Shown piece after piece: positions 9,765-28,500 of a stretch of 64,000 bases of DNA. The stretch is taken from positions 10,376 to 74,375 of the forward strand of contig JAPPOH010000008.1 in the NCBI GenBank assembly GCA_028818155.1, read 5' to 3'. Both the position numbers and the translations under genes were made by a program. The notes under the pieces were generated by a model. The model was not told the DNA's origin. It was given only the letters and a program-made list of their open reading frames with translations, and did not search any database. The first letter of the stretch is position 1. Each line of letters begins with the position of its first letter. This DNA comes from Candidatus Woesearchaeota archaeon. Its GTDB lineage: Archaea > Nanobdellota > Nanobdellia > Woesearchaeales > UBA525.

Positions 9765-9791
9765 CTCTCGACGATACAGCCTGTGGTAAAC

Positions 9792-9799: not shown

Positions 9800-9832
9800 G
9801 GTTGCTCCGTCTAAGACCTGTGAGGTGAGGGG

Positions 9833-12538: not shown

Positions 12539-12616
12539 GCATAGAATTTTGGGTCAGACGGTATTTAAAGCTTACGACGAGCAACACTTTTAAACAAATA
12601 AGCGTTTCTTTAGCAT

Positions 12617-13177
12617 ATGTCCGAATTCGAAACGTTACGAAAGGAACTTGCAGAATATGATGCTTTGAGAGATACAGTGATTAAAACTGCACGGGACATT
12701 GTCAAGAACAGCAAGCACGCGATTTACAGCTTGCACAGAAATGAAGTCAAGAAAGCAAAGGAGCAGCTCAAGGAAGCGGAGAAGATCACGAAGGAACTCG
12801 CTCCTGTGATCAAGAAGCATCCTTCCTTGCGACATGGTATGTTTTCCTCTGGGATGGAAGAGTACGCTGAGGCACGCGCATTCCTGCAATTCTTGGAGAA
12901 CGGAACGCTTGTTTCTTGCAAAGAGCTTGGCGTGACGGTGGACGAGTACCTCCTTGGCCTGTGTGATGTGACAGGGGAGCTGATGCGGTTCGCTGTACAT
13001 AAGGGCACGGAACGTGATACAAAAGCGGTGCAGGCAGCTCGTGATCTGGTCGATATGATTTTTGGTGAGTTGATGCAGTTCGACTTCCGGAACTCTGAAT
13101 TACGGAGAAAGTATGATTCGGTGAAGTATAATTTGCAGAAGATTGAGAAAGTGTTGTATGATTTAGCGCTACAGTAA
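12617..13177 (+). CDS. translin-family protein (186 aa)
   Basis: All-helical sequence containing EYLLGLCDVTGELMRFAV, which matches the translin/TRAX signature helix. Confidence 0.7.
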   Translation: MSEFETLRKELAEYDALRDTVIKTARDIVKNSKHAIYSLHRNEVKKAKEQLKEAEKITKELAPVIKKHPSLRHGMFSSGMEEYAEARAFLQFLENGTLVSCKELGVTVDEYLLGLCDVTGELMRFAVHKGTERDTKAVQAARDLVDMIFGELMQFDFRNSELRRKYDSVKYNLQKIEKVLYDLALQ

Positions 13178-13558
13178 GTCCTCTGGTTTGACGATTTTGA
13201 TACCTTCGTATTCTCTGATGTTGAGTAAGTGCTTATCAAAGGTGACTATGTAGTCTGCCTTTCCTGCTAGAGCACACGCGATGATGTGATCGTCATCCGG
13301 GTCATCATGCACAATTTGTGGAATGGTAGTTGGCTCGACGTCCTCTAAGAATGAGGCGAGTGCTTGTAATTTTTCATTCGCATCAGGGATACTATGATTG
13401 AATTTCCAAACGAGAACGTGCTTGCATTCTTCTTGTATTGTTCTCGACCAGTAGAACGTGAGAGTTTTTTCTCGGAGCAACTTTCGAGCAAGACTTGTTT
13501 TCCAAATGGCTGCGGATACTAAGATGTTCGTGTCCGGGACGCACGTTCGTACCTGTAT
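13169..13558 (-). CDS. vapC: PIN-domain ribonuclease toxin (VapC-like); initiation codon unresolved
   Basis: ..CVPDTNILVSAAIW..DDDHIIACALAGKADYIVTFDKHLL.. carries the PIN acidic residues. There is no ATG/GTG/TTG in frame upstream of the first catalytic Asp. The rest of track ORF 13169-14452 is antisense to aspS. Confidence 0.6.
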   Translation of the reverse strand: MQVRTCVPDTNILVSAAIWKTSLARKLLREKTLTFYWSRTIQEECKHVLVWKFNHSIPDANEKLQALASFLEDVEPTTIPQIVHDDPDDDHIIACALAGKADYIVTFDKHLLNIREYEGIKIVKPEDLL

Positions 13559-13806
13559 TCGAGTGCCATGTTGATCACGTCCTGCTCTGTGAGGCCAAGT
13601 TTTTCGAGCTCTCGCTGGCTTTTCGCCGCGGATTTGTCGAGCCGATCGTTGGCTCTTTTCCACTCTTCTTCTGTCATTCGTTTGACTTTCTTGAGAATGA
13701 TCATATCGTCCTCTCGTTGCACGGTGAACGCTGTTCCCGGATCGAGGTCTTCTCTGATTTTTCTCGGAATGACGACTTGTCCTTTTGTTGACATCGTTGT
13801 GATCAT
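13519..13806 (-). CDS. vapB: AbrB/SpoVT-type antitoxin (VapB/MazE-like), 95 aa
   Basis: MSTKGQVVIPRKIREDL swapped-hairpin motif. Overlaps the PIN ORF. Confidence 0.75.
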   Translation of the reverse strand: MITTMSTKGQVVIPRKIREDLDPGTAFTVQREDDMIILKKVKRMTEEEWKRANDRLDKSAAKSQRELEKLGLTEQDVINMALEYRYERASRTRTS

Positions 13807-13811
13807 GCTGA

Positions 13812-13830
13812 AAGTAAGATATTCTTACTT
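13812..13830. promoter_or_regulatory. palindromic operator candidate AAGTAAGA-TAT-TCTTACTT between the TATA box and the vapB start
   Basis: A perfect 8-bp inverted repeat read directly from the sequence. It sits 6 nt upstream of the antitoxin ATG (13806) and just downstream of the CCTATAAAAG-type box (minus-strand orientation). Confidence 0.5.
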
Positions 13831-13942
13831 TTATAGGTTTCGGTTGCATGCTCGTATGAATGAGAGGCGCATTAAGTGAGTGCTGCAGAGAAATCCGGAA
13901 AGGTTCCGGATGGGGCCGGAAATAATTCCCGTTTGCGTGAAC

Positions 13943-13951
13943 TTTTATATA
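13943..13951 (+). promoter_or_regulatory. TATA box (TTTTATATA) of aspS
   Basis: Ends 22 nt before ATG 13974, which implies a leaderless or near-leaderless mRNA. Confidence 0.55.
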
Positions 13952-13973
13952 CACCACGAGTTCCACGAGGAGT

Positions 13974-15671
13974 ATGCATAGAACACACACGTGTGGTGAA
14001 TTACGCAAGGAGCACGCTGGAGAAGAAGTAACACTCTCCGGCTGGGTCCACGTGATCAGAGAGCATGGCAGCAAGCAGTTTGTTGACCTTCGTGATAGGT
14101 ATGGTGTGACGCAAGTTGTTCTCGAAGAAAAGGCAGATATTCGTCGAGAGACTGTGGTAAAAGTAACTGGGAAAGTTGTCGAGAAGCCAAAAGCGAATGA
14201 AAAATTAGCGACTGGCGAGATCGAAGTGCAAGCATCCTCTTGCAAGATTCTCGGACCGGCCGACCCGATCCCCATGGAGCCGGAAGCAGAGAATACAGAA
14301 GAGACACGACTCAAATACCGATACTTAGACTTGCGACGGCCGGACATGCAGGCAAAACTCCAATTCCGAGATGATTGCGCGTCCAGTGTGCGGAAACACA
14401 TGCACGCACACGGCTTTACCGAAGTGGAAACACCAATTCTCATGAAATCCACGCCTGAAGGCGCGAGAGATTATATCGTTCCTTCTCGTCTGCACAAAGG
14501 AAAGTTTTACGCCCTACCACAGAGCCCGCAGATCTACAAGCAGATTCTGATGGTTGCTGGCATGGACAAATACTTCCAAATCGTCAAATGTTTTCGTGAT
14601 GAAGATTTGCGTGCTGATAGGCAGCCAGAGTTCACCCAAGTGGACGTGGAGATGAGCTTTGTCGAGCAAGATGATGTGATCGCGCTTGGTGATGAATTAC
14701 TGAAGAATGTGGTGAAGGATGTGCTCGGCAAAGATGTCAAAACGCCATTCCCACGATTGTCATATGCTGAAGCGATGGACAAGTACGGGATTGATAAGCC
14801 GGACGCGAGGTTTGAGCTATTCCTGCATACGCTGACTGAGCTTGTGAAGGATTCCGAGTTCAAGGTGTTCAGTGAAGCGCCCTGCGTTCGTTGCTTAGTT
14901 GCTCCCGCGCTTTCACGAAAGCAGATTGACAAATATACGGAATTGGCGAAAACCTACAAGGCGAAAGGCCTCGCATACTTACAGGTCACGAAAGACGGCG
15001 TTGACAGTCCGATCAAGAAGTTCTTGTCTGATGAAGTTGTGGATAAAATCGTCAAAGAGACTGGCGCGAAGCCAGACAGCACGATTTTGTTCGTTGCAGA
15101 TAAAGAAAAAGTTGCAAATGACGCGCTCGCACACATTCGAAATGCGTTGGGTAAGCAGTTTGAATTATACGATCCTGAAGAATTAAATTTTCTTTGGGTG
15201 TTGGACTTTCCGTTATTCGAATGGAACGAAGATACTAAAGACTGGACGCCCATGCATCACATGTTTACCATGCCACACGAAGAGCATCTCCAATACTTGG
15301 AGTCTGATCCTGGCAAGGTCTTAGCGCAAGCGCACGATATTGTGCTCAATGGAACAGAAATCGGTGGTGGTAGCATCAGAGTGCACCATAAGGACGTGCA
15401 AGAACGTGTCATGAAGGCGATGAACATTTCTGAAGAGGATGCAAAGAAAAAATTCGGCTTCATGTTGGAGGCATTCCAGTACGGTGCGCCACCACACGGT
15501 GGCTTCGCTCTTGGTTTCGATCGAATGGTTGCGTTATTCCAAGGTGAGACTGATATTCGCGAGTATATCGCGTTCCCGAAGAACAAAGCAGCGCAGTCGT
15601 TGATGGACGACGCGCCTTCTGATGTCGAGCAAGAACAGCTGGATGAACTTCATTTGACTGTGAAGAAGTAA
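13974..15671 (+). CDS. aspS: aspartyl-tRNA synthetase, bacterial type with insertion domain (565 aa)
   Basis: FYALPQSPQIYKQILMVAGMDKYFQIVKCFRDEDLRADRQPEFTQVDVEMSF is nearly identical to the bacterial AspRS motif-2 region. The 565-aa length requires the bacterial insertion domain, since the archaeal type is ~430 aa. Confidence 0.9.
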   Translation: MHRTHTCGELRKEHAGEEVTLSGWVHVIREHGSKQFVDLRDRYGVTQVVLEEKADIRRETVVKVTGKVVEKPKANEKLATGEIEVQASSCKILGPADPIPMEPEAENTEETRLKYRYLDLRRPDMQAKLQFRDDCASSVRKHMHAHGFTEVETPILMKSTPEGARDYIVPSRLHKGKFYALPQSPQIYKQILMVAGMDKYFQIVKCFRDEDLRADRQPEFTQVDVEMSFVEQDDVIALGDELLKNVVKDVLGKDVKTPFPRLSYAEAMDKYGIDKPDARFELFLHTLTELVKDSEFKVFSEAPCVRCLVAPALSRKQIDKYTELAKTYKAKGLAYLQVTKDGVDSPIKKFLSDEVVDKIVKETGAKPDSTILFVADKEKVANDALAHIRNALGKQFELYDPEELNFLWVLDFPLFEWNEDTKDWTPMHHMFTMPHEEHLQYLESDPGKVLAQAHDIVLNGTEIGGGSIRVHHKDVQERVMKAMNISEEDAKKKFGFMLEAFQYGAPPHGGFALGFDRMVALFQGETDIREYIAFPKNKAAQSLMDDAPSDVEQEQLDELHLTVKK

Positions 15672-16130
15672 TTAGGAGATTTTCGCGCGAATGTCTTTGA
15701 TTTCCTCGTCTGCTATAGTTTCAATGATGTCGCTACAAGTTGTACGTGTCGTAGATGCATTTCGCATCATAAGTCCATAGAACTGATTCGGTATATGTGT
15801 ATCAATGTCGTACTGTGCTGCAACTCGTGTTTTCGCAGCTTGACGAAAAAAATTGATATCTGCAGGCGTAAAGTATTTTTTTAGTAATACCTCGACAAAT
15901 GTAATAGTGCACGCATGGATTTCGCACTTGACACCGATGCGTACGAGAATTGCATAGAGTGAAAAATAGATTGCATAATAAGATGTAACGATTTTCCAAT
16001 CTTTCTCTGAAATTGCCTGTAGGGTTTGCAACGACGCTCGTGCTTTCCTGAGATAGCTTGTTGCGAGTGTTCTACTTGGTTTCGTGAGTTCGATACCGTT
16101 TGTTATCTTACAACATTTTTTGATGTGCAT
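15672..16130 (-). CDS. HEPN-domain protein (partner of the upstream nucleotidyltransferase), 152 aa
   Basis: Helical protein with SYYAIYFSLYAILV and AAKTRVAAQYD blocks typical of HEPN partners of MNT genes. The start overlaps the MNT gene end by 23 nt. Confidence 0.55.
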   Translation of the reverse strand: MHIKKCCKITNGIELTKPSRTLATSYLRKARASLQTLQAISEKDWKIVTSYYAIYFSLYAILVRIGVKCEIHACTITFVEVLLKKYFTPADINFFRQAAKTRVAAQYDIDTHIPNQFYGLMMRNASTTRTTCSDIIETIADEEIKDIRAKIS

Positions 16131-16710
16131 GGCCGTGCATCACTGCTCGAACGAAGTCTTCTGCTCCGCGGAGTATGATGTGGTCATTACGGATTTCGTG
16201 CAGTAATATATCAGTTCCGATGATTTTTCCGAAACGTTTCCGGCGGTACTCGAAAATTTGTATCTCTAGGTGATATATTTCGGAAATCTTCCGGATTTCC
16301 TCATGATCACATCTTCCCGCGACAAAAAGATCAAGATCTGAGGTCTTTTTTTCGCTTCGCTTTGCATAACTGCCAAAGATGAGAACGATTCCTTTGCAAT
16401 GCTCGAGCACTTCTTTAACAATGTGTTTGATGTGAGGTTTTTCTTTGTAGAACTGGAGTGTTCTGAGATGTTCGACTGCTGTGACGAATTGTTGCACTGA
16501 TTCTTTGTTGTCAAGATGTAAATGGTATTCTGCATTTCGTCCTTTTGTTGTTCTGTAGAGGAGATGCTCTTTTTCTAGCTCTTTGAGAATGTTCGCAACT
16601 GTTTTTTGGTTGAGGTTTTTTTCTTTCGCTATCTCGCTGCCAGTTAGTTTTTTGTCGTATTTTTTCGTGAATTCTTCAATGACGGCTATTCTTTTCTTAT
16701 CTAGTAACAT
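16108..16710 (-). CDS. wHTH-fused minimal nucleotidyltransferase (MNT), 200 aa
   Basis: N-terminal wHTH (LTGSEIAKEKNLNQKTVANILKELEKEHLL) followed by the GSYAKRSEKKTSDLDLFV nucleotidyltransferase G-S...D-x-D motif. Confidence 0.75.
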   Translation of the reverse strand: MLLDKKRIAVIEEFTKKYDKKLTGSEIAKEKNLNQKTVANILKELEKEHLLYRTTKGRNAEYHLHLDNKESVQQFVTAVEHLRTLQFYKEKPHIKHIVKEVLEHCKGIVLIFGSYAKRSEKKTSDLDLFVAGRCDHEEIRKISEIYHLEIQIFEYRRKRFGKIIGTDILLHEIRNDHIILRGAEDFVRAVMHGHAHQKML

Positions 16711-16785
16711 TTTACTTATATAAGTAGAAGGTTACTTATAAAGGTTGTCACTATGTTTTTAAACGATGCGCAGCTTCTTTGAGAA

Positions 16786-17256
16786 ATGATGTACCAGAAA
16801 ATCATTACGTTTCTCGATGAGCATGGCGTAGAATATGAGCACTTCGAGCATGAACACGTGCATTCATCTGCGGATGCCGCGAAGGTGCGCGGAACGAAGT
16901 TAGAAGAGGCTGCGAAAGCGCTGATTTTGCAATCAAAATCCGGAAAGATTTTCCAATGTATTGTTGCCGGCCACAGAAAGTTAGATTTGAAAGCGATCAA
17001 GAAATTAATAGGAGAGAAGAATATTTCTCTTGCACATCCTGATGTTGTTTTTCAGGAAACAGGATGTAAAGTGGGGACCGTGCCACCGTTTGGCAATCTA
17101 TTCGAGAAACCCTTGCAGGTGTACGCTGACAAAGAATTGTTGACAAGAGATCATGTTTGTTTTTCCGTCGCTTCCCACAATCATAGTGTGCGAATGAAAT
17201 CTGCAGATTGGGCTCGCTTAACAAATGCTGCCGTGCACGATATTGGAAAGGAGTAG
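16786..17256 (+). CDS. ybaK: YbaK/ProX-type aminoacyl-tRNA deacylase (156 aa)
   Basis: ..AAKALILQSKSGKIFQCIVAGHRKLDLKAIKK..GCKVGTVPPFG.. blocks typical of YbaK/EbsC editing domains. Confidence 0.7.
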   Translation: MMYQKIITFLDEHGVEYEHFEHEHVHSSADAAKVRGTKLEEAAKALILQSKSGKIFQCIVAGHRKLDLKAIKKLIGEKNISLAHPDVVFQETGCKVGTVPPFGNLFEKPLQVYADKELLTRDHVCFSVASHNHSVRMKSADWARLTNAAVHDIGKE

Positions 17257-17691
17257 CTATTCAAGCACGACCATTGTTTGTGTTTCCTTGACTGCATCGA
17301 TGTTTCTCAGCGTTTCAATAACGAATGTTTTGAGTGCGGTGATATCTGTTGCATAGACGCGCAGCACGATATCTGTTCCGCCAACGACAACGGCTGCTTC
17401 TGTCACGCCGTCCATTGCTTGTATTTTTTTGGCGATCTGTTCCTGGGTCAAGTTCTGTTGTTTTAACGTGTTGTAGTCGATGGTGACAAGAATGTATGCG
17501 CTCACGTTGAGGCCGATTTTTTTCTTGTTGAGTGTGACGGTGTACGTGTCGATGACCCCTTCTTTCTCGAGTTTCTTGATCCTGTGATGCACGGTCGTGA
17601 TGGGGATTCGTGTTTTCTTTGCGATTTTTTGCGTCGATAACCGTGCGTTTTCTTTCAGCGCTTCGATGATTTTTTCGTCTTTCTTGTCCAT
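17257..17691 (-). CDS. lrp: Lrp/AsnC-family transcriptional regulator (144 aa)
   Basis: MDKKDEKIIEALKENARLSTQKIAKKTRIPITTVHHRIKKLEKEGVI HTH followed by a RAM domain. The track ORF extends upstream with implausible sequence, so I use ATG 17691. Confidence 0.85.
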   Translation of the reverse strand: MDKKDEKIIEALKENARLSTQKIAKKTRIPITTVHHRIKKLEKEGVIDTYTVTLNKKKIGLNVSAYILVTIDYNTLKQQNLTQEQIAKKIQAMDGVTEAAVVVGGTDIVLRVYATDITALKTFVIETLRNIDAVKETQTMVVLE

Positions 17692-17715
17692 AGATGGAAT
17701 GAATGTTTCATTTTC

Positions 17716-17724
17716 TATATAAAA
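17716..17724 (-). promoter_or_regulatory. TATA box of lrp (TTTTATATA on the minus strand)
   Basis: Lies 24 nt upstream of ATG 17691. Confidence 0.5.
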
Positions 17725-17812
17725 GTATCTATTTATTGCAATATTTTTCAGTTTTTTAGGATTAAGTATATGAATAATGTGACTATTTCGAAGTGGTAAT
17801 TGGGCATGGAAC

Positions 17813-18976
17813 ATGGCGATACAAAACACAAAGCGACTCGCAGAAATTGTTGCAGAATCAAAAAAACAATTTCGAACATTTTTGGAAGACGAAATTGAAG
17901 ACCCAAAGCAGGTTGTAGACTGGACCCTCGGCAAACATACAAGGGACAGAGAAAAAAACAGAATACTTGTCCTTTACACAGGCGGGACATTAGGAATGGA
18001 GTACAGAGACGGTGCTCTTGTTCCGAGTCTCTCACTTGAGCAATTACTAGAGAAGGCAAACCACGTTGTTAACATCGAAAACCGCTATGAAATCGAAGGC
18101 TACCATATATCACACATAGACAGCACAGAAATCAACGTGAAAGTGTGGAAGAACATTGCCAAGACAATTAAAGAACGCTATCAAGACGTTGATGGTGTTG
18201 TGGTTTTGCATGGTACAGACACGATGTCGTACACAGCATCAGCACTTGCATTCATGATGCAGCGCCTGTCAATTCCAATCGTATGCACAGGCGCCCAAAT
18301 GATTATGGAGAAAGACGGTTCCGATGTTGTTTCAAATCTCACGGGAGCTTTAGCAGTCGCCGCATCTGACTTAGCAGAATCAACACTTTACTTCAACGGC
18401 AATATTTACAGAGGAGTTCGTGTAGAGAAAGATGATGACTCGCGATTGCATGGCTTCAAGAACTTAACAGGGGGACCAATAGGCCACTTGGGAGGACATG
18501 GCGTTGAATTGTATCCAGGAACGTTGTTACGAGGGACGTATACTCCGAGAGACTTGAAGATGCAAACAGACCTTGCAACAAGCGTCGTTGAAGTTGTAGT
18601 GAGCCCCCTTACATCTACAGATGAAGTAGCTTCGGCAGTGCAAGGAGGTGACTGTCGGGCACTTATTCTCAGATCGTATGGACCGGGAAACGTGCCAGGT
18701 TGGTATACACCACTCGTAAGATTCCTCACAAAAGAAGAAAAAATACCAGTCTTCCTTTCATCACAGTGTTCGGGCAGTGGTATTTCTCCCGAAGGGAGTG
18801 TGTATGCAGTTGGAAAAACGATCGTCGACGCAGGAGGCGTTCCTCTTGGAGACATGAGCCCATCAGCCGCAGTCACGAAATCAATGCATGTAATGGCGCA
18901 TCACACTAGCATGCGCAGGATCAAAGAAGAAATGATAGGCAAGAGCTACGTTGGAGAGATCACAATACCGAGGTAG
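17813..18976 (+). CDS. ansA: type I L-asparaginase with ~50-aa N-terminal extension (387 aa)
   Basis: ILVLYTGGTLGM (catalytic Thr loop), VVLHGTDTM, and PIVCTGAQMIMEKDGSDVVSNL. The GatD-specific GAQRSxDRPSSDA block is absent. Confidence 0.75.
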   Translation: MAIQNTKRLAEIVAESKKQFRTFLEDEIEDPKQVVDWTLGKHTRDREKNRILVLYTGGTLGMEYRDGALVPSLSLEQLLEKANHVVNIENRYEIEGYHISHIDSTEINVKVWKNIAKTIKERYQDVDGVVVLHGTDTMSYTASALAFMMQRLSIPIVCTGAQMIMEKDGSDVVSNLTGALAVAASDLAESTLYFNGNIYRGVRVEKDDDSRLHGFKNLTGGPIGHLGGHGVELYPGTLLRGTYTPRDLKMQTDLATSVVEVVVSPLTSTDEVASAVQGGDCRALILRSYGPGNVPGWYTPLVRFLTKEEKIPVFLSSQCSGSGISPEGSVYAVGKTIVDAGGVPLGDMSPSAAVTKSMHVMAHHTSMRRIKEEMIGKSYVGEITIPR

Positions 18977-18980
18977 GAAA

Positions 18981-20411
18981 ATGACAGAAAACAGTGTTGA
19001 TATTTTCAGAGATGTCTCTATAGGAAGGGAGTTAGCTAGGTTCTCAGGCTCTGGGCGCACTATTCGTCGCGATGATTTCTATCACAACGCACGTGGTAAA
19101 GCGAGATTCAATGACCTATTGACCCTCGGAGATGTCGCAGATGCAATCGAAGCTGGTATGTTCGGGAAAACCTCAATTTCTGCCGAGCAGGTCACTGCAG
19201 CATTTGAAAATCATTACACTCCTCGAACAAGTATGCTTGATCTAGAAGCGCTTCTATTCGAAAACTGTCCTACTGTGTATCGAGAGGCATCTAAGGCTGG
19301 CAACGCTCCTTTCGTCGATATTCCAGAACCTCCAGATGGCCTACATGCATTCGATTGGTATAAGGTGCAAGCGTTCGAACCGGCGCTCAGTTCTCACCTT
19401 CATGTGCACAACGGACTCAAGGACAGAAAACTCTTACACAAACTATCGGAGCGCCGAATTAGCGATGCACTCTTGCCACTTCTCACGTATCAAGGAGGTG
19501 GAGGTGATGCCGCACGTAAGTCGCCTGCAACGAAAGCATCACATCATACAGTGGTGCGCAGAGAAAACCACCCTGCAGGACCTGGAATTCCACAAGGATT
19601 CGCATACGATTCAGACACATTTCAAGTGAGTATAGGGCCATATGCTCTAGTAGATTCTTCTGGTATAGAGCTCGTAGTCGGAACACAGTATTACGATGGA
19701 GCTATCGCAACTCATTGGCAAAGATTCGTAGAAGGAATTCCGAGTACTAAGCATCACAGCATCTACCCGAACAGAACACTAGAGATAAAAAGATCAGAGA
19801 TCATCAATTCATCTGGAGTGGAGGTAGAGATACTAGGGAAAAATGTAGCACCTTTACTCCAAGCAGCTATTTTCAACAGCGTTTCAGAAACAGTGATATT
19901 TCCTAAAGGGTCAGGCATGGGTGATGCAGACGTCGACTTGTTCCTTGAACGATCAGAGGTGGAGGAAGGTGTTCTGACGATTGAAGAGGATCACAAGATA
20001 GGAGTAGTATATCATTGTATGGGATCCATACGTAGAAGACCGGAAACGGGTGTGGTAGTTCGTGTCAATGATAACAGCACAGTGCTACTTACGCCATACG
20101 AGATAGGTTCCTGGGCACAGGTGCATAGAGATAGTCGCTTAAACAAGCGAGGAAGGTACGTCGAAACAGGCGATATTGTAGACCTTGAAAAACCATTCCT
20201 CCATTTCGATGCGATGCTTATGTGTGATATCCGAACAACACCTGTCGTTGCTATGCCTGTTCAAGAAGCAAAAATACTACGAGCAGGATATGAACGGGCA
20301 TACCTTGAAGAAACTCCAAAACCAATACAGAATATTGGAAGAGTTCCAAAGTGTTGGGGATCTTCCATTCGGGGATATGTTCTTGGATCTAGAATAGAAA
20401 GAAATAGTTGA
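18981..20411 (+). CDS. hypothetical protein (476 aa), no domain recognised
   Basis: ATG 18981 is preceded by GGTAGG and lies 4 nt after the ansA stop. It is a long uninterrupted ORF. Confidence 0.55.
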   Translation: MTENSVDIFRDVSIGRELARFSGSGRTIRRDDFYHNARGKARFNDLLTLGDVADAIEAGMFGKTSISAEQVTAAFENHYTPRTSMLDLEALLFENCPTVYREASKAGNAPFVDIPEPPDGLHAFDWYKVQAFEPALSSHLHVHNGLKDRKLLHKLSERRISDALLPLLTYQGGGGDAARKSPATKASHHTVVRRENHPAGPGIPQGFAYDSDTFQVSIGPYALVDSSGIELVVGTQYYDGAIATHWQRFVEGIPSTKHHSIYPNRTLEIKRSEIINSSGVEVEILGKNVAPLLQAAIFNSVSETVIFPKGSGMGDADVDLFLERSEVEEGVLTIEEDHKIGVVYHCMGSIRRRPETGVVVRVNDNSTVLLTPYEIGSWAQVHRDSRLNKRGRYVETGDIVDLEKPFLHFDAMLMCDIRTTPVVAMPVQEAKILRAGYERAYLEETPKPIQNIGRVPKCWGSSIRGYVLGSRIERNS

Positions 20412-20688
20412 GTCAAAAGGTAAAGATTGCATGAACCAGAAACAGTCATTCAGGAGCGAGACTATCATTTCTGTGTTGGGAACATGAGTTGAAGCTGTAG
20501 AAATAAAATTCCATTTCTCAACTATAAATAGAATATTCATTCCATATTATTTCATTTTTATTGTATTTTCAGCAATATATGCAACAATTTGTTGAATAAA
20601 TTTATATATTACGTAGTATCTACCAATGAGATGACACGAACGAAATACACGCAGAAGCGATTGAATCGTTTGTAGATACTTCTCTCTT

Positions 20689-20774
20689 GGCTTCGTAGCT
20701 CAGTTGGTGAGAGCGTTTGGCTGTTAACTTTTGCAGGAACCAAAAGGTCGATGGTTCAAGTCCGTCCGAAGCCG
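20689..20774 (+). tRNA. tRNA-Asn (GTT) with a 12-nt intron at the canonical 37/38 position (20727-20738)
   Basis: Hand fold: acceptor GGCTTCG/CGAAGCC, D arm GCTC-AGTTGGTGA-GAGC, anticodon stem TTTGG/CCAAA interrupted after CTGTTA by ACTTTTGCAGGA, variable AGGTC, T arm GATGG-TTCAAGT-CCGTC, discriminator G. Confidence 0.85.
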
Positions 20775-20789
20775 TTCAAGGTGAATACA

Positions 20790-22373
20790 ATGTGTGGCAT
20801 AATAGGAATATTCGGAAAGCATAGGCGAGCACAGGCGCTCAGTATGGCAAAAGCAATCAGACATCGCGGTCCAGATCATACAGGTATCTACGAAGATGAT
20901 TTCTGCACACTCGTACACGAACGTCTCGCTATCATGGACCCAGAGCATGGCGACCAACCATTTATCGACAAAAAAACTGGGAGAGTACTCATCCTCAACG
21001 GCGAAATCTACAACATTGAGGAACTGAAGCAAAAGCTCAAGAAAAAGCACGAGTGGCAGAGCGCGGTACCAGATGAGGCACTCTTGTATTTGTACGACGA
21101 GTACGGAAAGGAGTTCATCGATTGGATAGATGGTATGTTCGCGTTCATCTTGTATGATCCGAAAACAAAAGAGTATCTCATTGCAAGAGATCACATTGGT
21201 ATCGTCCCACTCTACATCGGGCAGGATGAACACTGCACGTACATCGCGAGCGAAATGAAAGCAATCCCATGCGAGCATGTCGAAACATTCAGGCCAGGAC
21301 ACTACTACGCGAAAGACGGCTACGAGAAATGGTACGAGAAACACTGGATGACACAACACCCAGAAGGACATGCGACACACCTCAAAGAACACCTCGAGAA
21401 ATCAGTTAAGCAACAAATAGTGGCCGACGTCCCCTTCGGTGTCTTACTCTCCGGCGGACTTGACTCGTCACTCGTCGCGGCAATCGCACGACAATATGTT
21501 GCGGAACTCCACACATTCTCCATCGGACTGCAAGACTCGCCAGACCTCGCAGCGGCGAGGAAAGTCGCAGCTGCAATCGACAGCACGCACCATGAGTTCA
21601 CATACACAATCCAAGAAGGGCTTGATGCACTCTCGGACGTTATCAGACACATCGAAACATTCGATGTCACATCAATCAGAGCATCAACACCGATGTACTT
21701 GATGGCGAGAAAAATCAAAGCGCGAGGCTTCAAAATGGTACTCTCAGGAGAAGGCGCTGATGAGATCTTTGGCGGCTATCTTTATTTCCATATGGCGCCC
21801 TCCGCAAAGGAATTCTGGGAAGAGACAGTACGAAAAGTACTCGCGCTCAGTAAGTATGATTGCCTGCGCGCAAACAAATCCATGATGGCGTGGGGCGTAG
21901 AAGCGCGCGTTCCATTCCTCGGCAAAGAGTTCGTTGACTACGCAATGCAGATAGATCCAGAAGCAAAACGCTGCGTAGGAAGAATCGAGAAACACCTCCT
22001 CCGAGAAACATTCGAAGATCATCTCCCAGAAGAGATTCTCTGGAGACAGAAAGAGCAGTTCTCTGATGGTGTAGGATATAGATGGATCGATTCTCTGAAA
22101 AAACACGCAGAGGAAACAATCACAGACAGACAACTTGCGCGAGCGCACGAACGATTTCCGTACGCGACACCGCAAACGAAAGAGGCGTATCTCTATCGAG
22201 AGATTTTCGAGCAGCATTTCCCCAGCGAACATACAGCAAAGACAGTCCCTGGCGGCCCTTCCATCGCATGCTCAACAGCAACAGCATTCGAGTGGAGTAA
22301 ACAGTTCAAGAAAATGGGTGATCCCACAGGGAGAGCGGTGAGTGTACATAAAAAGGCGGTGCAAAAAATATGA
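20790..22373 (+). CDS. asnB: asparagine synthetase, glutamine-hydrolysing (527 aa)
   Basis: N-terminal MCGIIGIF (Ntn Cys2), the GEIYN block, and the SGGLDSS PP-loop. The track start 20751 lies inside the tRNA, so I use ATG 20790, which has GGTGA 6 nt upstream. Confidence 0.9.
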   Translation: MCGIIGIFGKHRRAQALSMAKAIRHRGPDHTGIYEDDFCTLVHERLAIMDPEHGDQPFIDKKTGRVLILNGEIYNIEELKQKLKKKHEWQSAVPDEALLYLYDEYGKEFIDWIDGMFAFILYDPKTKEYLIARDHIGIVPLYIGQDEHCTYIASEMKAIPCEHVETFRPGHYYAKDGYEKWYEKHWMTQHPEGHATHLKEHLEKSVKQQIVADVPFGVLLSGGLDSSLVAAIARQYVAELHTFSIGLQDSPDLAAARKVAAAIDSTHHEFTYTIQEGLDALSDVIRHIETFDVTSIRASTPMYLMARKIKARGFKMVLSGEGADEIFGGYLYFHMAPSAKEFWEETVRKVLALSKYDCLRANKSMMAWGVEARVPFLGKEFVDYAMQIDPEAKRCVGRIEKHLLRETFEDHLPEEILWRQKEQFSDGVGYRWIDSLKKHAEETITDRQLARAHERFPYATPQTKEAYLYREIFEQHFPSEHTAKTVPGGPSIACSTATAFEWSKQFKKMGDPTGRAVSVHKKAVQKI

Positions 22374-23023
22374 TAGCGCAAGAACTACCAGAAGAAGTCA
22401 AACCAACAGAAGTAGTGTCTAAAGAATATGAAGATTTAGAGCACATACCAGAAATTCGGTTCTTTAAGTGGGGGAGGAACATGAAACCACGTGAGCGGGC
22501 GCAGCAACTTGGTATACCTCCTGAGCATTCTACAAGAACAAGATATTTTCAAGTCTTCAAACAAGATAACTTTATATTGCAGTATGGTGCTCTTCTATCT
22601 GCAGTAGATAGATTAGATATGAACAAACTACGAACTGCAATTGCAGAGGTAGATGCGTTCTTTTCTACTTCCCATACCTTAAAGAAGGCACAAAAAGAGT
22701 ATCTTCCCAGGGGAATGGATTCTTTTAACTTTGCTCCATTTCTTCCCTACACGCTTTCGCCGAGAAACCAAGAAGCCGGTTTGAAGAGTGGAATTAGAGG
22801 TATTTTTGTCGATGAAAAACTTGGGCGAGGGCCGGTCGAAATTGGTGTTCCTGGAAGAAGAGACGCATCTATATATGTGCCAATAAGTGCAATTATAGAC
22901 AGCGACGCATTGCTAGAATATCATTTCGCGGATATCACTGGAGTGAGAAGAGATCACCCAAAGAAACACATTCCACGAAAGGAAGTCAGACACGCAGATA
23001 AAAGACTAGCATCCCATCGATAG
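22370..23023 (+). CDS. hypothetical protein (217 aa) wedged between asnB and asnS
   Basis: ATGA overlap with the asnB stop. No recognisable motif. Confidence 0.55.
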   Translation: MIAQELPEEVKPTEVVSKEYEDLEHIPEIRFFKWGRNMKPRERAQQLGIPPEHSTRTRYFQVFKQDNFILQYGALLSAVDRLDMNKLRTAIAEVDAFFSTSHTLKKAQKEYLPRGMDSFNFAPFLPYTLSPRNQEAGLKSGIRGIFVDEKLGRGPVEIGVPGRRDASIYVPISAIIDSDALLEYHFADITGVRRDHPKKHIPRKEVRHADKRLASHR

Positions 23024-23048
23024 CTATTAAAACGAACGAGGCATCCAC

Positions 23049-24344
23049 ATGACTATGACAATACAAGACGCAATCGAGCAAGGAACGGGAGACGCACAAC
23101 TCAGAGGCTGGATCTGGCGAGAGCGTGGCAGTAATAAGATGAAGTTCCTCGTCCTTAGAGATAGCTCGAACATCATCCAGTGCGTCTGTAAACGAGATGA
23201 TTTCTCTGATGAACAGTGGGATGCGATCGACAAACTCCAAGTGGAAGCTGCAGTGGAGTTAGAAGGAACACTCAAGAAAGACGACCGCGCACCAACTGGC
23301 GTTGAACTCACGGTAAAGAAACTCACGATCGTCGGAGCATCAGACACATTTCCGATCACAAAGGACCAAAGTACGGAATTCCTTGCAGATAACAGACACT
23401 TATGGTTGCGAAGTAGAAAAATGACCGCGATCCTAAAAATCAGAAGCACTGTCTTCGGCGCAATCCACGACTATTTCAGGAGCAACGGTTTCTACGAATA
23501 CCAAAGTCCGATCTTCCAGAGTGTCCAATGCGAAGGAGGCTCAACCCTATTCAACGTCCCCTACTTCGGACAAGAAGGTGTGTTCCTCGCACAATCATGG
23601 CAACTCTACGCGGAACCCGCAATCTTCTCGTTAGAAAAGATTTACACGATGGCACCCTCGTTCAGAGCAGAAAAGAGTAAAACATCGAGACACCTAACAG
23701 AATACTGGCACGCAGAGATGGAGATTGCGTGGGCAAACTTCGACGATGTTATTGATGTGGGGGAAGGAGTCTTGAAGCACATCACAAAAACGGTTCTTGA
23801 AAGAAACAAGCTCGACTTGGAAGTCTTAGAACGGGACATCAGCAAGCTAGAACCGGTCACAAAGAAACAATTCCCGAGGATGACGTACGACGACGCACTC
23901 AAAATACTGAAAGACAAATGCGACATGGATGTCGAGTGGGGCAAGGACCTGAGAACAGTCGAGGAAGACAAACTTTCAGAACTCTACGACACGCCAATCA
24001 TCGTCACACATTACCCGAAGAAGGTCAAGGCGTTCTACATGAAAGAAGCGCCAGACAACAAAGAAGTTGTCCATGGCGTTGATTTCATCGCGCCAGAAGG
24101 CTACGGGGAAATTATCGGCGGCTCAGAAAGAGAATCAGATTTAGAATCCATCAAAGAACGCCTTAAAGAGATGGGTGAAGATGTCAAAGAGTACGAATTC
24201 TACTTAGACACGAGAAAGTATGGCTCTGTCCCGCATGGTGGCTTTGGCATGGGTACAGAACGAGTCATCGCATGGATCTGTGGCGTAGAAAACATCAAAG
24301 ACACAATTCCTTTCCCGAGAACGATGCTGCGTTGGACGCCTTAG
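23049..24344 (+). CDS. asnS: asparaginyl-tRNA synthetase (431 aa)
   Basis: FRAEKSKTSRHLTEYWHAEME and YLDTRKYGSVPHGGFGMGTERV match the AsnRS class IIb motifs 2/3. Confidence 0.9.
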   Translation: MTMTIQDAIEQGTGDAQLRGWIWRERGSNKMKFLVLRDSSNIIQCVCKRDDFSDEQWDAIDKLQVEAAVELEGTLKKDDRAPTGVELTVKKLTIVGASDTFPITKDQSTEFLADNRHLWLRSRKMTAILKIRSTVFGAIHDYFRSNGFYEYQSPIFQSVQCEGGSTLFNVPYFGQEGVFLAQSWQLYAEPAIFSLEKIYTMAPSFRAEKSKTSRHLTEYWHAEMEIAWANFDDVIDVGEGVLKHITKTVLERNKLDLEVLERDISKLEPVTKKQFPRMTYDDALKILKDKCDMDVEWGKDLRTVEEDKLSELYDTPIIVTHYPKKVKAFYMKEAPDNKEVVHGVDFIAPEGYGEIIGGSERESDLESIKERLKEMGEDVKEYEFYLDTRKYGSVPHGGFGMGTERVIAWICGVENIKDTIPFPRTMLRWTP

Positions 24345-25027
24345 CGGAGAGATTTGACATCAGGGACTGAAGGACTCTGTCTATAAACGGACGTTCCTTT
24401 CGGAATCATAGATGCGACATTGCGTGATTGACAACCTCGCTTTCTCTTCGGAGGCTGCGCTCCTGAATGTGGATCGTATCGTTTCACTGTATTTCGAACC
24501 GTTTTTTTCGGGTCAATAAGCGAATACTCGAACGAAGGTTTTCGTGTGAGTTGTTCTACAATGGAAAGCTCTCGATTTGTTGCTCGAGGATCTACTTCCC
24601 GTTTTCCCTGCAGTTGCGCTCTCTCCTTCAATGCAGTGTATTCTTGTCGTCGGAAGAAACCATACACTGCTGCTCGGAACGCACCGCCACCTGTATCAAC
24701 ACCAGAACTGCTTGGTTTCGCAGTAACAAGATCGTCAATATGTGCTTGTTGTGCAACTCTGCCAGGATCGACTTTTCTTTCCTTCGAAAATGACGTGCTG
24801 CGTTTGTACGCATAGTCTCCCATATCGCGAAGATATTGGCTTACTCGTTTAATTCTCGTCGAGGCGTACTCGCTGGCTTTTTTGGGTGCAGTGCCGAGTT
24901 GCGCATAATAACTTGCAAGATGTTTTTCTCCTTGAAGTTTTGCTGCAAAGCTCGAAAGCTGCGCGCTAGGCGATCCAAGGACTGGCCCTGATAGGTTTGC
25001 TGGTTCCGGAAACGCGAATGAGCGCAT
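24341..25027 (-). CDS. hypothetical basic protein (228 aa)
   Basis: ATG-initiated ORF, convergent with and overlapping the asnS end by 4 nt. Arg/Lys/Ser-rich with no motif recognised. Confidence 0.45.
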   Translation of the reverse strand: MRSFAFPEPANLSGPVLGSPSAQLSSFAAKLQGEKHLASYYAQLGTAPKKASEYASTRIKRVSQYLRDMGDYAYKRSTSFSKERKVDPGRVAQQAHIDDLVTAKPSSSGVDTGGGAFRAAVYGFFRRQEYTALKERAQLQGKREVDPRATNRELSIVEQLTRKPSFEYSLIDPKKTVRNTVKRYDPHSGAQPPKRKRGCQSRNVASMIPKGTSVYRQSPSVPDVKSLR

Positions 25028-25098
25028 ACCACTGGCAAGTGACTATTTATTTATAAATGCTTCCAAACATATTTAAAAACGATTCACGACGAGTAAGC

Positions 25099-25500
25099 AT
25101 GCCTGGCGCACTTACACACCTCGGCGTTGCGCTCATCGCCGCAGGAATCGTGCATTTCATCCACTACAGAACAGAATTTTCTCTCGCTATCTTCCTTGGC
25201 AACCTCCTTCCAGATGCACTCAAATTCGGCTTCACGGCGGCAAAACAGCTCACACTGAGTATCTTCTCTGTCGAGCACGATAGCTTCTTCCACACAATAG
25301 CACAAATAACGGGTAGCTACACGAATTGGTTCACGCTCGGCTTCTTTCTCTTCGGAACACTCATACTACTCTACCATTTCCATTATATCAAGAAAAAAAC
25401 TATGGAAGAGTACGATGAACTGTATGTGTTCTTGCTTATTGGTATTATTACGCATTTAATCCTTGACGCTTTAATCAACGAAACCGGTCCGTGGTTCTAG
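25099..25500 (+). CDS. membrane-bound metal-dependent hydrolase-like protein (YdjM/DUF457-like), 133 aa
   Basis: MPGALTHLGVAL start motif, conserved His residues and 4 TM helices. AT-rich TATTTATTTATAAA lies upstream. The track start 25057 would sit too close to this box. Confidence 0.45.
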   Translation: MPGALTHLGVALIAAGIVHFIHYRTEFSLAIFLGNLLPDALKFGFTAAKQLTLSIFSVEHDSFFHTIAQITGSYTNWFTLGFFLFGTLILLYHFHYIKKKTMEEYDELYVFLLIGIITHLILDALINETGPWF

Positions 25501-25537
25501 TCGACACTTTTAAAAAGACGTCTTCTCGAGAATAAAC

Positions 25538-28500
25538 TTGGGTGTTTCGGTGGTACACAAGAGGATAACACTCGCGCTAGTCCTAGTGCTACTCCTGCCC
25601 TTTTTATACGCAGCAACCTCAACCACTATCACAACACCAACGAACAACACATTTCTCACAGGAAACACAGACATCAACGCCACGTTTAACGGCACGACAA
25701 ACATCACTATTCTCTACAATGATACAACACTGAACACATCAGTAAACGAATCAGGATCCTATTCCTTCACGTGGCCAACAAACAACGGCTCATTCCCTGA
25801 CGGGGTGTACAACCTCACTATCATTGTCGTGAACGAGACAAACCAATCGGATAACGACACAGCGTATGTCAGTAACCTCACAATTGACAACACCCCACCA
25901 ACAGTCACAACACTCACCGTCAACGACACAACACCGCTGAGCAACGATACAACGGTAAATTTCAGAGTCAATGTATCTGATACGAACAACGTCTCACTTG
26001 TACAACTCTCAAGCGGCGCAATCAACGCGAACATGACACGTATCGCAGGCGATGTCTTCAACGGCATGTACGAACTGAACACATCACTCGCAACGTTCGC
26101 CTGCGTGAACGAATCAGTCTGTACGCTCAGCGTCCTTGCTGATGATCTCGTCTCGAATAGGAACGACTCAGTCAACACAACCCAGTTCCCAGTCTTCACA
26201 GACAGTATCCCGCCACGGATCCTCTTCAACGGGACAAACGTCACAACAGCAGCAGCAGGAGACAATATCACGATCGCAGCACAATGGCAAGAAGTAGCAT
26301 TCATCAGCAACACCAGCTACACAGCCACGTTCGACAGATACAACGGCGCGGCATTCGCCTCAACACACCCATACCTCCAAGTATGGTCAAACAGCCTTCT
26401 AGAAACGAACTACACGAACGTCACGTACAACGTGAACGGTTCCGATGAAGGACAAACACTCACCTTTCGAGTAACACTAGAGGATACGAGCACATTCACG
26501 AACACAACTGAAAACCTCACCGTAACAATCAGCAATAGCTCCCCCACAGCAACGCTCATCTCACCATTCAACACCTCAACCATTGCGGACACAACAGGTA
26601 TTGTGCTCGAATTCTTCGACCAAGGAAGCGGCATCGATCTCACAACATTCACGATCAATATCACAAACGATGCCGTGAACACCTCAATAAACTATACGTC
26701 AAACAGCTCACTCTTCAGTTGCACAGCAAACACAACAACAATCACCGACAACCAAACGTGCACCGTTTCACTATCGCCATTCAGCGGCAATATAACACTC
26801 AACACACACGTCGAAGACCTTGTAGGGAACGAAGTGAACACAACACTCGCATACTTTATCGTGCAAGCACCCGACATCGTGAATATTTCCGCAAACAATC
26901 AATCGCTTGCAGTCACAACACCAGATGCGAGCATCAGCGCGTCAATCACAAACACGTCAAGAGAAATCACGCTCAACTGGAGTGTGGATGTGAACACAGC
27001 GGTGAACCAAACAACGATCGCTTTCGTGAACGTGACAGACCCGCAAGCAATAGTAAGAACAACGATACCTGCAGGCGTTCTCTATAACATTACCGCCGGA
27101 AAGAATTACCTTACTATTAACACAACACTGAACAACTCTCCAATCACAGAAACGGTTCAAATTAACTTGACCGCAAACGTCCCGCTCAACATCACATCGA
27201 TTGCAGCACAATACACAAAGGATATGGTGGTGAGCTTTAACGTCTCAGAGAACGGTATCGATATCACAAACGCGACGCGACAAGTCGACACAACGCTTGA
27301 ACTGCTCGTGAACGTGACGAACACAACATATCAGGCTGAGTTCAACTACACAGAAGTGAACGGTACAGCGGTCAGATGGAACGCATCCAGCGACGCATTC
27401 AATGCAGTCGCCGCAACTGGAGCACGGCTCTCAGAGCTCGGCAACAGAACATTCACGAACGTGTCATTCGTTATCCAAAGCGCCGGCCAGACAGAGTTGT
27501 TCTTCGACGAACAGCAGTACAGGGTGCACGTTGAGCTCAACGTCACACTGACGAACCTTACGCCATACTACACGTCAGATGACAACATATACCTCTTAGA
27601 GGCGTGTAGCGCAGCACCAACAACACCAATCAATGATTCAGACGCATGCTACCTGAACGGTACGAATACAACAATACTATATCTTCCGGCATTCGACAGT
27701 GGCGATGAACTATTCTTCGGCTCACCGAACGGCATTAACACAACACTCATTACCAATACGACAATCAATCAAAGCGTTATCCCACTCCACATCAGTGTCG
27801 CAACTATACTTCCAAACACAACATTCTGTACGTACAACGTGAGCTCTTACAACGTAACATCCGGAAACTCCACACAAAACGCAACAGCAACGCTTGGACC
27901 TGACGTGTTCACAATCAATGGGTTCCAATGGTCATACCAGCAAAATCTCACAGGATACGAAGACGGGTTATACAACTTCAGTCTCACGTGTGCAGAACAA
28001 CTTGGCAATACAGACACAGTGACAGCAACACTGAACATCACAGATACAACACCACCAACTATTTCACAAGTCACATCATCAAGTGTCGGACAAGACAGCG
28101 CAACCATTTCCGGTATCGCTGACGAAGTCGTCACCTTTACGTTGAAATACAGCACAGACGAGGACGATCTAAGCCTTTCAGAGGCAGGCACAACAGGCAC
28201 AGCAGAGAGTATCGACCTCGAGGATCTAAGTGCGGGTACAACATATTACTTTAACCTCACTGCATGCGACATAAACGGACGCTGTGGCACATCAGCAACA
28301 CTATCATTCACTACTGGAACACCATCTGTTAGTTCAGGAGGTGGTGGCGGTGGTGGTGGCGGAGGAGGAGGCGAAAAAGAGGTACTGGAAGGCACTATTG
28401 AAGAAACAGAAACTCGACTCTGGAATGCTGTCGCTTCAGGTCCTATCGAATACGATCCAATTGGTGTAGCATTCACATTCCTGAGCGTACACTTCGACAA

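Follow-up and report, generated by a model that had tools for sequence, protein, structure and literature searches.

A probable Asp-tRNA/Asn-tRNA supply locus with an exchangeable asparagine-forming module in Woesearchaeota-type DPANN archaea

Results

Genes of the locus

A 10-kb cluster of genes concerned with the synthesis of asparagine and its loading onto tRNA lies in a 64,000-nucleotide stretch of DNA from a Woesearchaeota-like archaeon (assembly GCA_028818155.1, contig JAPPOH010000008.1, positions 10,376 to 74,375; hereafter the window, in whose own numbering positions are given). The genome, a metagenome-assembled genome (MAG) of 1.64 Mb in 17 contigs that is 87% complete, belongs to the DPANN archaea (Diapherotrites, Parvarchaeota, Aenigmarchaeota, Nanoarchaeota and Nanohaloarchaeota), and the window lies on contig 14. 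Gene identities were taken from a listing of open reading frames (ORFs) and from Pfam, NCBIfam and Rfam matches over the window, which bear out, at their coordinates, all the genes named in an initial annotation of this DNA. The core features are the following:

12617-13177, plus strand: translin-family gene (Pfam Translin, E = 2e-32)
13974-15671, plus strand: aspS, bacterial-type aspartyl-tRNA synthetase (AspRS) with a GAD insertion domain (PRK00476, 816 bits against a cut-off of 443; Pfam GAD, E = 2e-22)
16786-17256, plus strand: ybaK-like gene for an editing-domain protein (Pfam tRNA_edit, PF04073, E = 5e-29, 101 bits against 25.5)
17257-17691, minus strand: asnC, regulator of the Lrp/AsnC family (Pfam AsnC_trans_reg and HTH_24, each about 1e-15)
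17695-17710: AsnC box 1, TGGAATGAATGTTTCA, placed as in relatives, with the asnC TATA box on one side and the asnC ATG on the other
20529-20544, minus strand: AsnC box 2, TGGAATGAATATTCTA, followed some 65 nt further on by the TTTATATA box (20602-20609)
20689-20774, plus strand: tRNA-Asn(GUU), discriminator G73, interrupted after position 37 by a 12-nt intron (Rfam, 62.8 bits against 29)
20790-22373, plus strand: asnB, glutamine-dependent asparagine synthetase (PRK09431, 748 bits against a cut-off of 499; GATase_7 and Asn_synthase domains)
22370-23023, plus strand: orphan ORF of 217 aa (ORF217), joined to the asnB stop by an ATGA overlap
23049-24344, plus strand: asnS, the sole asparaginyl-tRNA synthetase (AsnRS) of the genome (PRK03932, 507 bits against a cut-off of 414)

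AsnB, encoded by a single-copy gene, belongs to the families PRK09431 and TIGR01536 and begins with MCGIIG, its start being placed at 20790 because the N-terminal Cys is obligatory. AsnRS, likewise single-copy, falls into TIGR00457 (450 bits against 343) and contains the tRNA_anti-codon and tRNA-synt_2 domains. tRNAs were called with Rfam and with a tRNA-Asn model built here, ARAGORN with its intron option having missed all tRNAs of the window. The identification as tRNA-Asn(GTT) is upheld by the Rfam match and the anticodon loop CU-GUU-AA, and the gene scores 81.5 bits with our own model and ends in ...GAAGCC-G at its 3' side; an ARAGORN call of 'Val(aac)' is an artefact of misreading the 12-nt intron at 37/38, as the loop CU-GUU-AA and the discriminator G indicate. 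Folded at minimum energy, the tRNA gives a cloverleaf with an apparent bulge-helix-bulge of relaxed form: of the canonical motif (3-nt bulge, 4-bp helix and 3-nt bulge around both splice sites) it has the helix (CUGU/GCAG) and the 3' bulge, while the 5' side ends in an 8-nt loop with no outer helix. Introns occur in many other tRNAs of this genome, and a second tRNA-Asn, intron-less, lies on another contig (C9:60836-60908).

The tRNA and the three genes behind it are tightly spaced. Only 15 nt, including a GGTGA Shine-Dalgarno sequence at 20779-20783, separate the tRNA from the asnB ATG, and 25 nt lie between ORF217 and asnS. Because those 15 nt leave no room for an archaeal promoter, and because in relatives too (L004, L056, L020 and G006; see below) tRNA-Asn and the gene after it run closely spaced in one direction, tRNA-Asn, asnB, ORF217 and asnS would form one transcription unit; processing would then cut out the tRNA, and the remaining mRNA would start just before the Shine-Dalgarno sequence. 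A structured leader (a 9-bp inverted repeat within 20615-20680) was considered and set aside, its fold having a z of -1.5 and the leader of a congener showing no preference for an analogous stem; no T-box or other leader RNA was found either, Rfam at gathering thresholds giving no match anywhere in the window apart from two tRNAs.

At the level of gene content, AsnB together with AsnRS appears as the only detectable route to Asn-tRNA(Asn) in this genome, because no GatA, GatB, AsnA or archaeal-type AspRS was found in it. One GatE and one true GatD are encoded, on another contig. There is no GatA match at E<=0.001, a tblastn search with congener queries for GatA, GatB and GatC returns only GatE, and AsnA was not found, so that the 87%-complete genome lacks a recognisable tRNA-dependent pathway (gatA, gatB and gatC). 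Nor was an archaeal-type AspRS found in addition to aspS, which is single-copy and the sole AspRS gene detected.

Counterparts in related genomes

The window proteins were mapped onto 80 asnS loci, all from distinct genomes, gene content was surveyed in 61 genomes of the order, and 80 asnB and 80 aspS loci of bacteria served for comparison; loci and genomes are given L and G numbers below, and coordinates identify three same-genus loci with genomes of the survey (L004 = G004, L008 = G007, L020 = G002). AsnRS is encoded in 80/80 of the related loci fetched, its nearest homologues all coming from Woesearchaeota/Nanoarchaeota MAGs (68-77% identity). On the same strand and upstream of asnS, often with overlapping stop and start codons, aspS is present in 26 of the 80 loci (12 of bacterial and 14 of archaeal type), and in 9 a YbaK-like gene stands between aspS and asnS. 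A further arrangement, asnB directly upstream of asnS, also occurs in 9 of 80, with a divergent asnC in 4/4 of those with further upstream sequence, and two loci, L058 and L082, have an E. coli-type asnA in place of asnB (asnC-asnA-asnS), which brings the loci with asnB or asnA at this position to 11.

One counterpart is that of the congener G006, which reads translin - aspS - ybaK - asnC (minus strand) - tRNA-Asn - orf168 - asnB - two ORFs - asnS, with a 37-nt intron in the tRNA and the same tail-to-tail junction of ybaK and asnC as in the window. Other relatives carry a different module at this place. L004, of the same genus, has tRNA-Asn - gatC - gatA - gatB - ybaK - asnS at 6381-9963, with aspS upstream, gatC beginning one base past the tRNA and gatB overlapping ybaK; it has the look of a full operon for the tRNA-dependent route, with its tRNA as the first gene, in the slot that asnB holds in the window. 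The order is tRNA-Asn - gatC - gatA - gatB - asparaginase (minus strand) - asnS in L008 and aspS::ybaK - gatC - gatA - gatB - asnS in L026; in L056 aspS follows tRNA-Asn after 23 nt and gatCAB comes later, and in G011, of another genus, tRNA-Asn lies about 380 nt upstream of a co-oriented GatA match on one contig. L004, L008, L026 and L056 all encode AsnRS, aspS and gatCAB and have neither AsnA nor AsnB, so that transamidation would be their sole source of Asn.

Linkage of tRNA-Asn(GUU) to asnS within 10 kb is found in 10 of the 80 loci, against some 1-2 expected from genome size. The tRNA takes at least five positions (before asnB, gatC or aspS, and after aspS or asnS), with asnB behind it in the window genome and G006, and its acceptor stem in the window, GGCUUCG, is common to the cluster-linked tRNA-Asn of L008 and nearly matched in L004 and L056. 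Judged by gene order, the tRNA thus appears to stay constant while its partner changes with the enzyme that provides the amide. Across the 61 genomes, a true AsnB occurs in 3, AsnA in 5 and GatA in 30, and GatA is present in 0/8 genomes with AsnA or AsnB as against 30/53 of the others (Fisher p=0.0047).

As a side observation, the GatA matches of G034, G035, G041, G045, G046, G048 and G055 contain one TGA stop within the matched stretch and those of G052 and G059 one TAA; these may be alignments across the gatC/gatA junction, or something else.

Taken together, the locus is probably one version of a conserved Asp-tRNA/Asn-tRNA supply locus of Woesearchaeota-type DPANN archaea, whose backbone would be translin - aspS - ybaK-like - asparagine-forming module - asnS with tRNA-Asn attached, and whose module would be gatCAB behind tRNA-Asn (the tRNA-dependent variant), asnC with asnB or asnA (the tRNA-independent variant), or nothing. 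That the genes instead met by chance, or through a mis-assembled metagenome bin, might be suspected of a 17-contig, 87%-complete MAG, and chance juxtaposition had been named as the outcome that would overturn the initial annotation. It is extremely improbable: the independent assembly G006 (a UBA10207 contig) shares both the backbone and the ybaK/asnC junction, dozens of other assemblies hold sub-arrangements, and the naive probability that four other specific single-copy genes would all fall less than 10 kb from asnS in a genome of 1.64 Mb is about (20/1640)^4, or about 2e-8. Recurrence in relatives, the congener included, refutes mere juxtaposition.

A regulator and its conserved putative operator

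The regulator is encoded tail-to-tail with the YbaK-like gene and divergently from an asparaginase gene (17813-18976). It belongs to the wider Lrp/AsnC family, its 76.6 bits against PRK11179, the equivalog model of E. coli AsnC, lying below the cut-off of 227. Orthologues with 35-43% identity stand divergent from asnB, asnA or a small family termed famX (described below) in at least 13 related loci. A 16-bp palindrome, TGGAAC-N4-GTTCCA, is found between the asnC start codon and the TATA box in eight loci (L029, L032, L049, L058, L073, L074, L078 and L082). Boxes 1 and 2 of the window conform to it in degenerate form, and G006 carries TGGAATATTATTCCA in the spacer between asnC and tRNA-Asn. Three matches to the degenerate pattern occur in the 64-kb window where 0.15 would be expected; the third, TGGAACGGCAGTTCTA at 4386-4401 on the minus strand, lies inside an ORF and is probably due to chance.

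We infer that the targets of the regulator are its own gene, the divergent asparaginase and the tRNA-Asn/asnB/ORF217/asnS unit. It would bind the palindrome at its own promoter and the second copy upstream of the tRNA/asnB unit, and would so provide one asparagine-responsive switch over synthesis, charging and the neighbouring asparaginase, in the manner of E. coli AsnC on asnA.

AspRS and its YbaK-like companion

The AspRS of the window is of the bacterial type (PRK00476/TIGR00459), with its GAD domain at residues 304-385. In the AspRS tree it lies nearest to G006 and L020 within a GAD-containing clade (support 100), the backbone of the tree being without resolution, and this clade of the window, L020 and G006 occurs in genomes without GatA. 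We know of no reliable sequence signature that separates discriminating from non-discriminating bacterial-type AspRS. Three forms of the enzyme fill the aspS slot upstream of ybaK-asnS, even though the AsnRS genes concerned are closest relatives: the GAD-containing bacterial form in the window (13974-15671), a bacterial form without GAD in L004 (4757-6208) and L005 (7317-8795), and an archaeal-like form of 638 aa in L009 (466-2382). This looks like displacement in place.

The YbaK-like protein is a member of the INS/YbaK superfamily as predicted from its sequence (PF04073), and it is not filed as YbaK proper because its 70.5 bits against the TIGR00011 equivalog fall below the cut-off of 153. 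Its best PDB matches, at 1e-13, are uncharacterised proteins. Across 11 aligned orthologues K44 and the motif GxVPPFG are invariant or nearly so, and the genome has two YbaK-superfamily paralogues that are 20% identical.

The subfamily was sampled through 80 loci returned by a scan, aspS being counted as a neighbour within the 5-kb flank. In 34 of these loci AspRS and the YbaK-like domain form a single in-frame ORF of about 745 aa (OB, class II core, GAD and tRNA_edit), and in 22 a free ybaK has aspS upstream on the same strand, mostly directly adjacent. Such fusions, for which no description was found in the searched literature, occur in at least 34 genomes of DPANN (Woesearchaeota/Nanoarchaeia) and of the Candidate Phyla Radiation (CPR), often with translin upstream and gatCAB downstream, while two without GAD (615-629 aa) come from MAGs labelled Saccharibacteria and Patescibacteria. 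Five examples and L026 were confirmed with Pfam. Individual fusions are located as follows:

L295:3222-5459, L337:3216-5456, L328:3201-5456 and L026:4499-6712: examples of the AspRS::YbaK-like fusion
L296:3564-5453 and L344:609-2456: further AspRS::YbaK-like fusions

The fusions and the conserved adjacency of the free genes are strong evidence for a functional partnership of the YbaK-like protein with AspRS. As to its substrate, Asp-tRNA(Asn) that is released can be mis-incorporated, and overexpressed misacylating synthetases are toxic (PMC3367201), which makes Asp-tRNA(Asn) the obvious candidate. We regard it as a tentative and rather doubtful proposal that the protein is a dedicated proofreader of AspRS, hydrolysing Asp-tRNA(Asn) that escapes amidation or another error product of the enzyme. 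To our knowledge, no editing domain is known for AspRS, a class IIb enzyme, and the pair would then be the first editing module for a synthetase of this class.

The same editing role could be played for AsnRS by famX in asnC-controlled asnA/asnB-asnS operons. This small and distant YbaK-like family comprises 30 proteins without a Pfam match, some of them named YbaK/EbsC by JGI, and matches PDB 1wdv at E=0.0025. It provides the first gene of operons divergent from asnC, as in:

L350:3449-6968: famX-asnA-asnS
L348:3442-6224: famX-asnB
L351:3506-6092: famX-asnS

ORF217 is possibly a degenerate relative of famX, a weak lead: hhalign gives a probability of 86% with a 5-sequence profile and 22% with 29 sequences. 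No homologue of ORF217 was found by word-based search or in Pfam and NCBIfam; its coding score is weakly positive, in its own frame only, its G+C content at third codon positions (GC3) is 0.32, and a single-sequence AlphaFold2 model (predicted local distance difference test, pLDDT, 33) is unusable. The orf168 of the congener, between tRNA and asnB, was also considered as famX-like and was rejected at 1% probability.

Probable insertions between the regulator and the tRNA

Two further genes separate asnC from the tRNA/asnB unit, the second absent from the earlier reading:

17813-18976, plus strand: type-I-like amidohydrolase of the L-asparaginase family (Pfam Asparaginase, E=3e-50), with a 48-aa N-terminal extension
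18981-20411, plus strand: orphan ORF of 476 aa, 4 nt past the asparaginase stop

The asparaginase carries both catalytic Thr motifs (TGGT and HGTDT), and among PDB entries it resembles type I asparaginases most, at about 1e-40; it scores 204.8 bits against TIGR00519 (cut-off 260.5) and 188-193 bits against GatD models, below cut-off there too (310 for the score of 193). No orthologue was found in 60 relatives, identity to anything being at most 31%. The 337-aa asparaginase that lies divergently beside asnS in the same-genus locus L008 (4378-5394) is only 25% identical to that of the window, so that an asparaginase would have come to lie beside asnS at least two times. For the 476-aa ORF no homologue was found in 5.8e9 proteins by word-based search, in 1.84e9 representatives with HMMER, or in Pfam and NCBIfam; its codon score is positive in its own frame only, its GC3 is 0.35, and its single-sequence AlphaFold2 model (pLDDT 30) is unusable. 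A reading of the two genes as a divergent GatD/GatE-like pair was dropped, the orphan having no similarity to GatE or GatB and the true GatD and GatE lying elsewhere.

AsnC boxes 1 and 2 form a 20-nt imperfect inverted repeat on either side of these genes. Because the boxes flank them and G006 still has the asnC-to-tRNA/asnB arrangement, the two genes look like a cassette inserted into an ancestral promoter region between asnC and tRNA/asnB. The same inverted repeat might be taken to mean that tRNA-Asn is only an integration target, with no functional tie to the mobile cassettes that would have landed there in the way of integrative elements (gatCAB, asnC-asnB, or the asparaginase and the 476-aa ORF), a view with which the low-GC3 orphans adjoining the tRNA, the varying content behind it among close relatives and an AsnB history discordant with the flanks would agree. 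However, no integrase or recombinase was found by Pfam on the ORFs of 12617-25500 and no partial tRNA duplicate among the repeats of 12000-26000, it is always tRNA-Asn that stands beside Asn- or Asp-specific genes, and in at least five positions, the inverted repeat is a regulator box kept in genomes without the cassette, and the 1-15 nt to the next start codon argue for a shared transcript. We therefore hold an integration target without functional tie to be unlikely.

Assembly within DPANN

The initial annotation had proposed a self-contained and possibly co-acquired module for the direct supply of Asn-tRNA(Asn). The functional grouping stands, whereas co-acquisition is contradicted by discordant trees and native codon usage. 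In the AsnRS tree the window falls into a clade (support 99) with L004, L005, L008, L009 and L020, none of which has asnB. In the AsnB tree DPANN sequences form one clade (support 99) apart from Bacteroidota and Gammaproteobacteria, with the window as a long basal branch that is not sister to the AsnB of G006 (approximately unbiased test, p=0.0016, for a group named after the tree had been seen). The genomes that adjoin the window differ between the trees of AsnRS, AspRS and AsnB. Codon usage divides the genes in two, with a native-like GC3 of 0.52-0.59 in aspS, asnC, asnB and asnS and an atypical one of 0.32-0.43 in the asparaginase, the two orphans, the ORF that follows asnS and a probable toxin-antitoxin pair (described below); no compositional break was seen across the block.

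These data bear on the possibility that the whole block of 7-10 kb came recently, as one self-contained unit, from one bacterium, in line with the common bacterial donor of asnS, asnB and aspS for which the initial annotation suggested a test. Consistent with such a transfer, the AspRS is bacterial-type with a GAD domain, the AsnB is of the E. coli type with its nearest non-DPANN relatives in Bacteroidota and Gammaproteobacteria (52-55% identity), and toxin-antitoxin pairs and low-GC3 orphan ORFs lie inside the block. Nevertheless, the closest homologues of all three enzymes are from DPANN (59-77% identity), DPANN AsnB is one clade, the three trees disagree on the window, and the core has native codon usage with no break in composition. 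In addition, asnC, asnS or ybaK was found beside bacterial asnB or aspS in 0/160 loci, and AsnRS is present in 80/80 related loci as against AsnB in 3/61 genomes. Acquisition from one donor is thus very unlikely, and no single donor phylum could be named for AspRS or AsnB, the backbone of the AspRS tree being without resolution and the bacterial matches, at 47-55%, coming from many phyla.

Since the arrangement recurs in relatives and is absent from the bacterial loci, it is real and selected and arose inside the archaeal group. Discordant trees, native codons, bacterial loci without the links and the restriction of AsnB to 3/61 genomes together indicate that the cluster was assembled and re-shuffled within the DPANN lineage, its core appearing long resident and modular and its orphans recent additions.

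Neighbours of aspS

Between aspS and the YbaK-like gene lies the following pair, which the earlier reading had also missed:

15672-16710, minus strand: HEPN-like protein (152 aa; Pfam HEPN, E=0.004) and a winged helix-turn-helix (wHTH) plus nucleotidyltransferase protein (200 aa; NTP_transf_2, Polbeta and MntA matches)

With a GC3 of 0.37-0.41, no counterpart between aspS and ybaK in relatives and a paralogue on contig 12, it is probably a toxin-antitoxin insertion, outside the asparagine theme of the locus. A second toxin-antitoxin-like pair, at 13169-13806, includes a MazE/AbrB-type antitoxin at 13519-13806, so that two such pairs bracket aspS. The translin gene recurs in over 25 related loci, immediately upstream of aspS or of an aspS::ybaK fusion.

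Discussion

The best account of these observations, and in our judgement a likely one, is that of a conserved supply locus for Asp-tRNA and Asn-tRNA. In the window genome, Asn would be made from Asp and Gln by AsnB and loaded by AsnRS, the YbaK-like protein may work with AspRS as a proofreading deacylase, and the asparaginase with the 476-aa orphan, ORF217 and the toxin-antitoxin pair would be later, lineage-specific insertions.

Several points weigh against this account. The linkage of tRNA-Asn is limited to 10/80 loci, and part of it is one inherited arrangement. The AsnB and AsnC of the window are no closer to those of its congener than to those of distant Woesearchaeota, which makes common descent of the arrangement with asnB in this genus uncertain, and with a genome 87% complete the lack of GatCAB and AsnA is provisional. 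Neither the asparaginase I model nor the GatD model gives the asparaginase a score that reaches the trusted cut-off. As regards expression, the evidence for a tRNA-mRNA operon is the spacing of its genes and that for the function of the AsnC boxes is the conservation of their position, the half-sites of box 2 are imperfect, and the assignment of a promoter is uncertain because a transcript driven by the strongest TATA box (20602-20609) would begin within the 9-bp leader repeat.

No paper on this cluster was found in the searched literature, and the locus combines known kinds of arrangement, namely regulator/synthetase pairs, synthetase/biosynthesis operons and tRNA-mRNA operons. The first kind is exemplified by asnC-asnA of E. 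coli, in which AsnC activates asnA and asparagine counteracts. As there, an Lrp/AsnC regulator is divergent from an asparagine synthetase gene, with a palindrome in the shared promoter region, and the partner in L058, L082 and L350 is an E. coli-type asnA; unlike there, the DPANN operon adds asnS, often famX and, in the window, a tRNA gene, the divergent gene of the window is an asparaginase with asnB behind a second box 2.8 kb off, the promoters of the window are of the archaeal TATA type, and its regulator scores far below the AsnC equivalog cut-off. Synthetase and biosynthesis genes are paired as asnS-asnA in Lactobacillus bulgaricus. In the thrU-tyrU-glyT-thrT-tufB operon of E. coli, tRNA genes are co-transcribed with a protein gene; the tRNA of the window likewise stands directly upstream of a same-strand coding gene with no room for a promoter, but it is cognate to the downstream pathway and has an archaeal intron, and here the co-transcript is deduced from the genes. 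AspRS-GatC fusions (NF009460) resemble those described here in that a bacterial-type AspRS is extended C-terminally by a partner from the Asn-tRNA pathway, whereas DPANN and CPR add a YbaK-like domain and the window keeps two separate genes.

Three further systems invite comparison. The amidation genes of Clostridium acetobutylicum are T-box-controlled, to judge from a title among the references of PMC4206432. T-box bacteria, too, place charging and asparagine-forming enzymes under one control tied to asparagine or tRNA-Asn status, but they sense uncharged tRNA via a leader RNA, whereas the window has a conserved box for a protein regulator, and what stands before its predicted operon is an actual gene for tRNA-Asn instead of a leader that binds tRNA. 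Both routes to Asn-tRNA(Asn) coexist in Thermus thermophilus, Deinococcus radiodurans and Bdellovibrio (PMC4206432), and the relatives L004, L008, L026 and L056 are similar in encoding AsnRS, aspS and gatCAB; they differ in that the two solutions share one locus slot within one genus and that a bacterial-type AspRS operates inside archaea, the window genome having the direct route only. Finally, trans-editing by YbaK/ProXp involves a ternary complex with ProRS, as cited in PMC3367201 from An and Musier-Forsyth 2005. The YbaK-like protein shares with YbaK/ProXp the fold family, the conserved lysine and the Gly-x-x-Pro-Pro-Phe-Gly loop, and it too occurs free-standing and fused to a synthetase, like the INS domain in ProRS; its probable partner, however, is the class IIb enzyme AspRS, and the protein of the window fails the YbaK equivalog cut-off.

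The wider interest lies in the in-place alternation of gatCAB and asnB behind tRNA-Asn and in the AspRS-linked YbaK-like domain. How cells switch between making asparagine on the tRNA (non-discriminating AspRS with GatCAB) and as the free amino acid (AsnA or AsnB with AsnRS) is a long-standing question about the machinery of the code, and because both solutions and the empty state share one slot in close relatives, the replacement is open to study here as an exchange of genes at one site. Further leads are an archaeal regulon with a conserved putative operator and a likely tRNA-mRNA co-transcript tying a tRNA to the enzymes that feed it. The AspRS-linked domain points to an undescribed mechanism of Asp/Asn fidelity and, if the proofreading role were true, such a safeguard would let reduced cells switch between gatCAB and asnB or asnA behind the same tRNA-Asn gene. 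In Woesearchaeota MAGs most amino-acid pathways are missing while asparagine synthase is kept and expressed (PMC11606122), and for the biology of DPANN the locus likewise shows the supply of asparagine to be among the few amino-acid functions retained by these reduced genomes.

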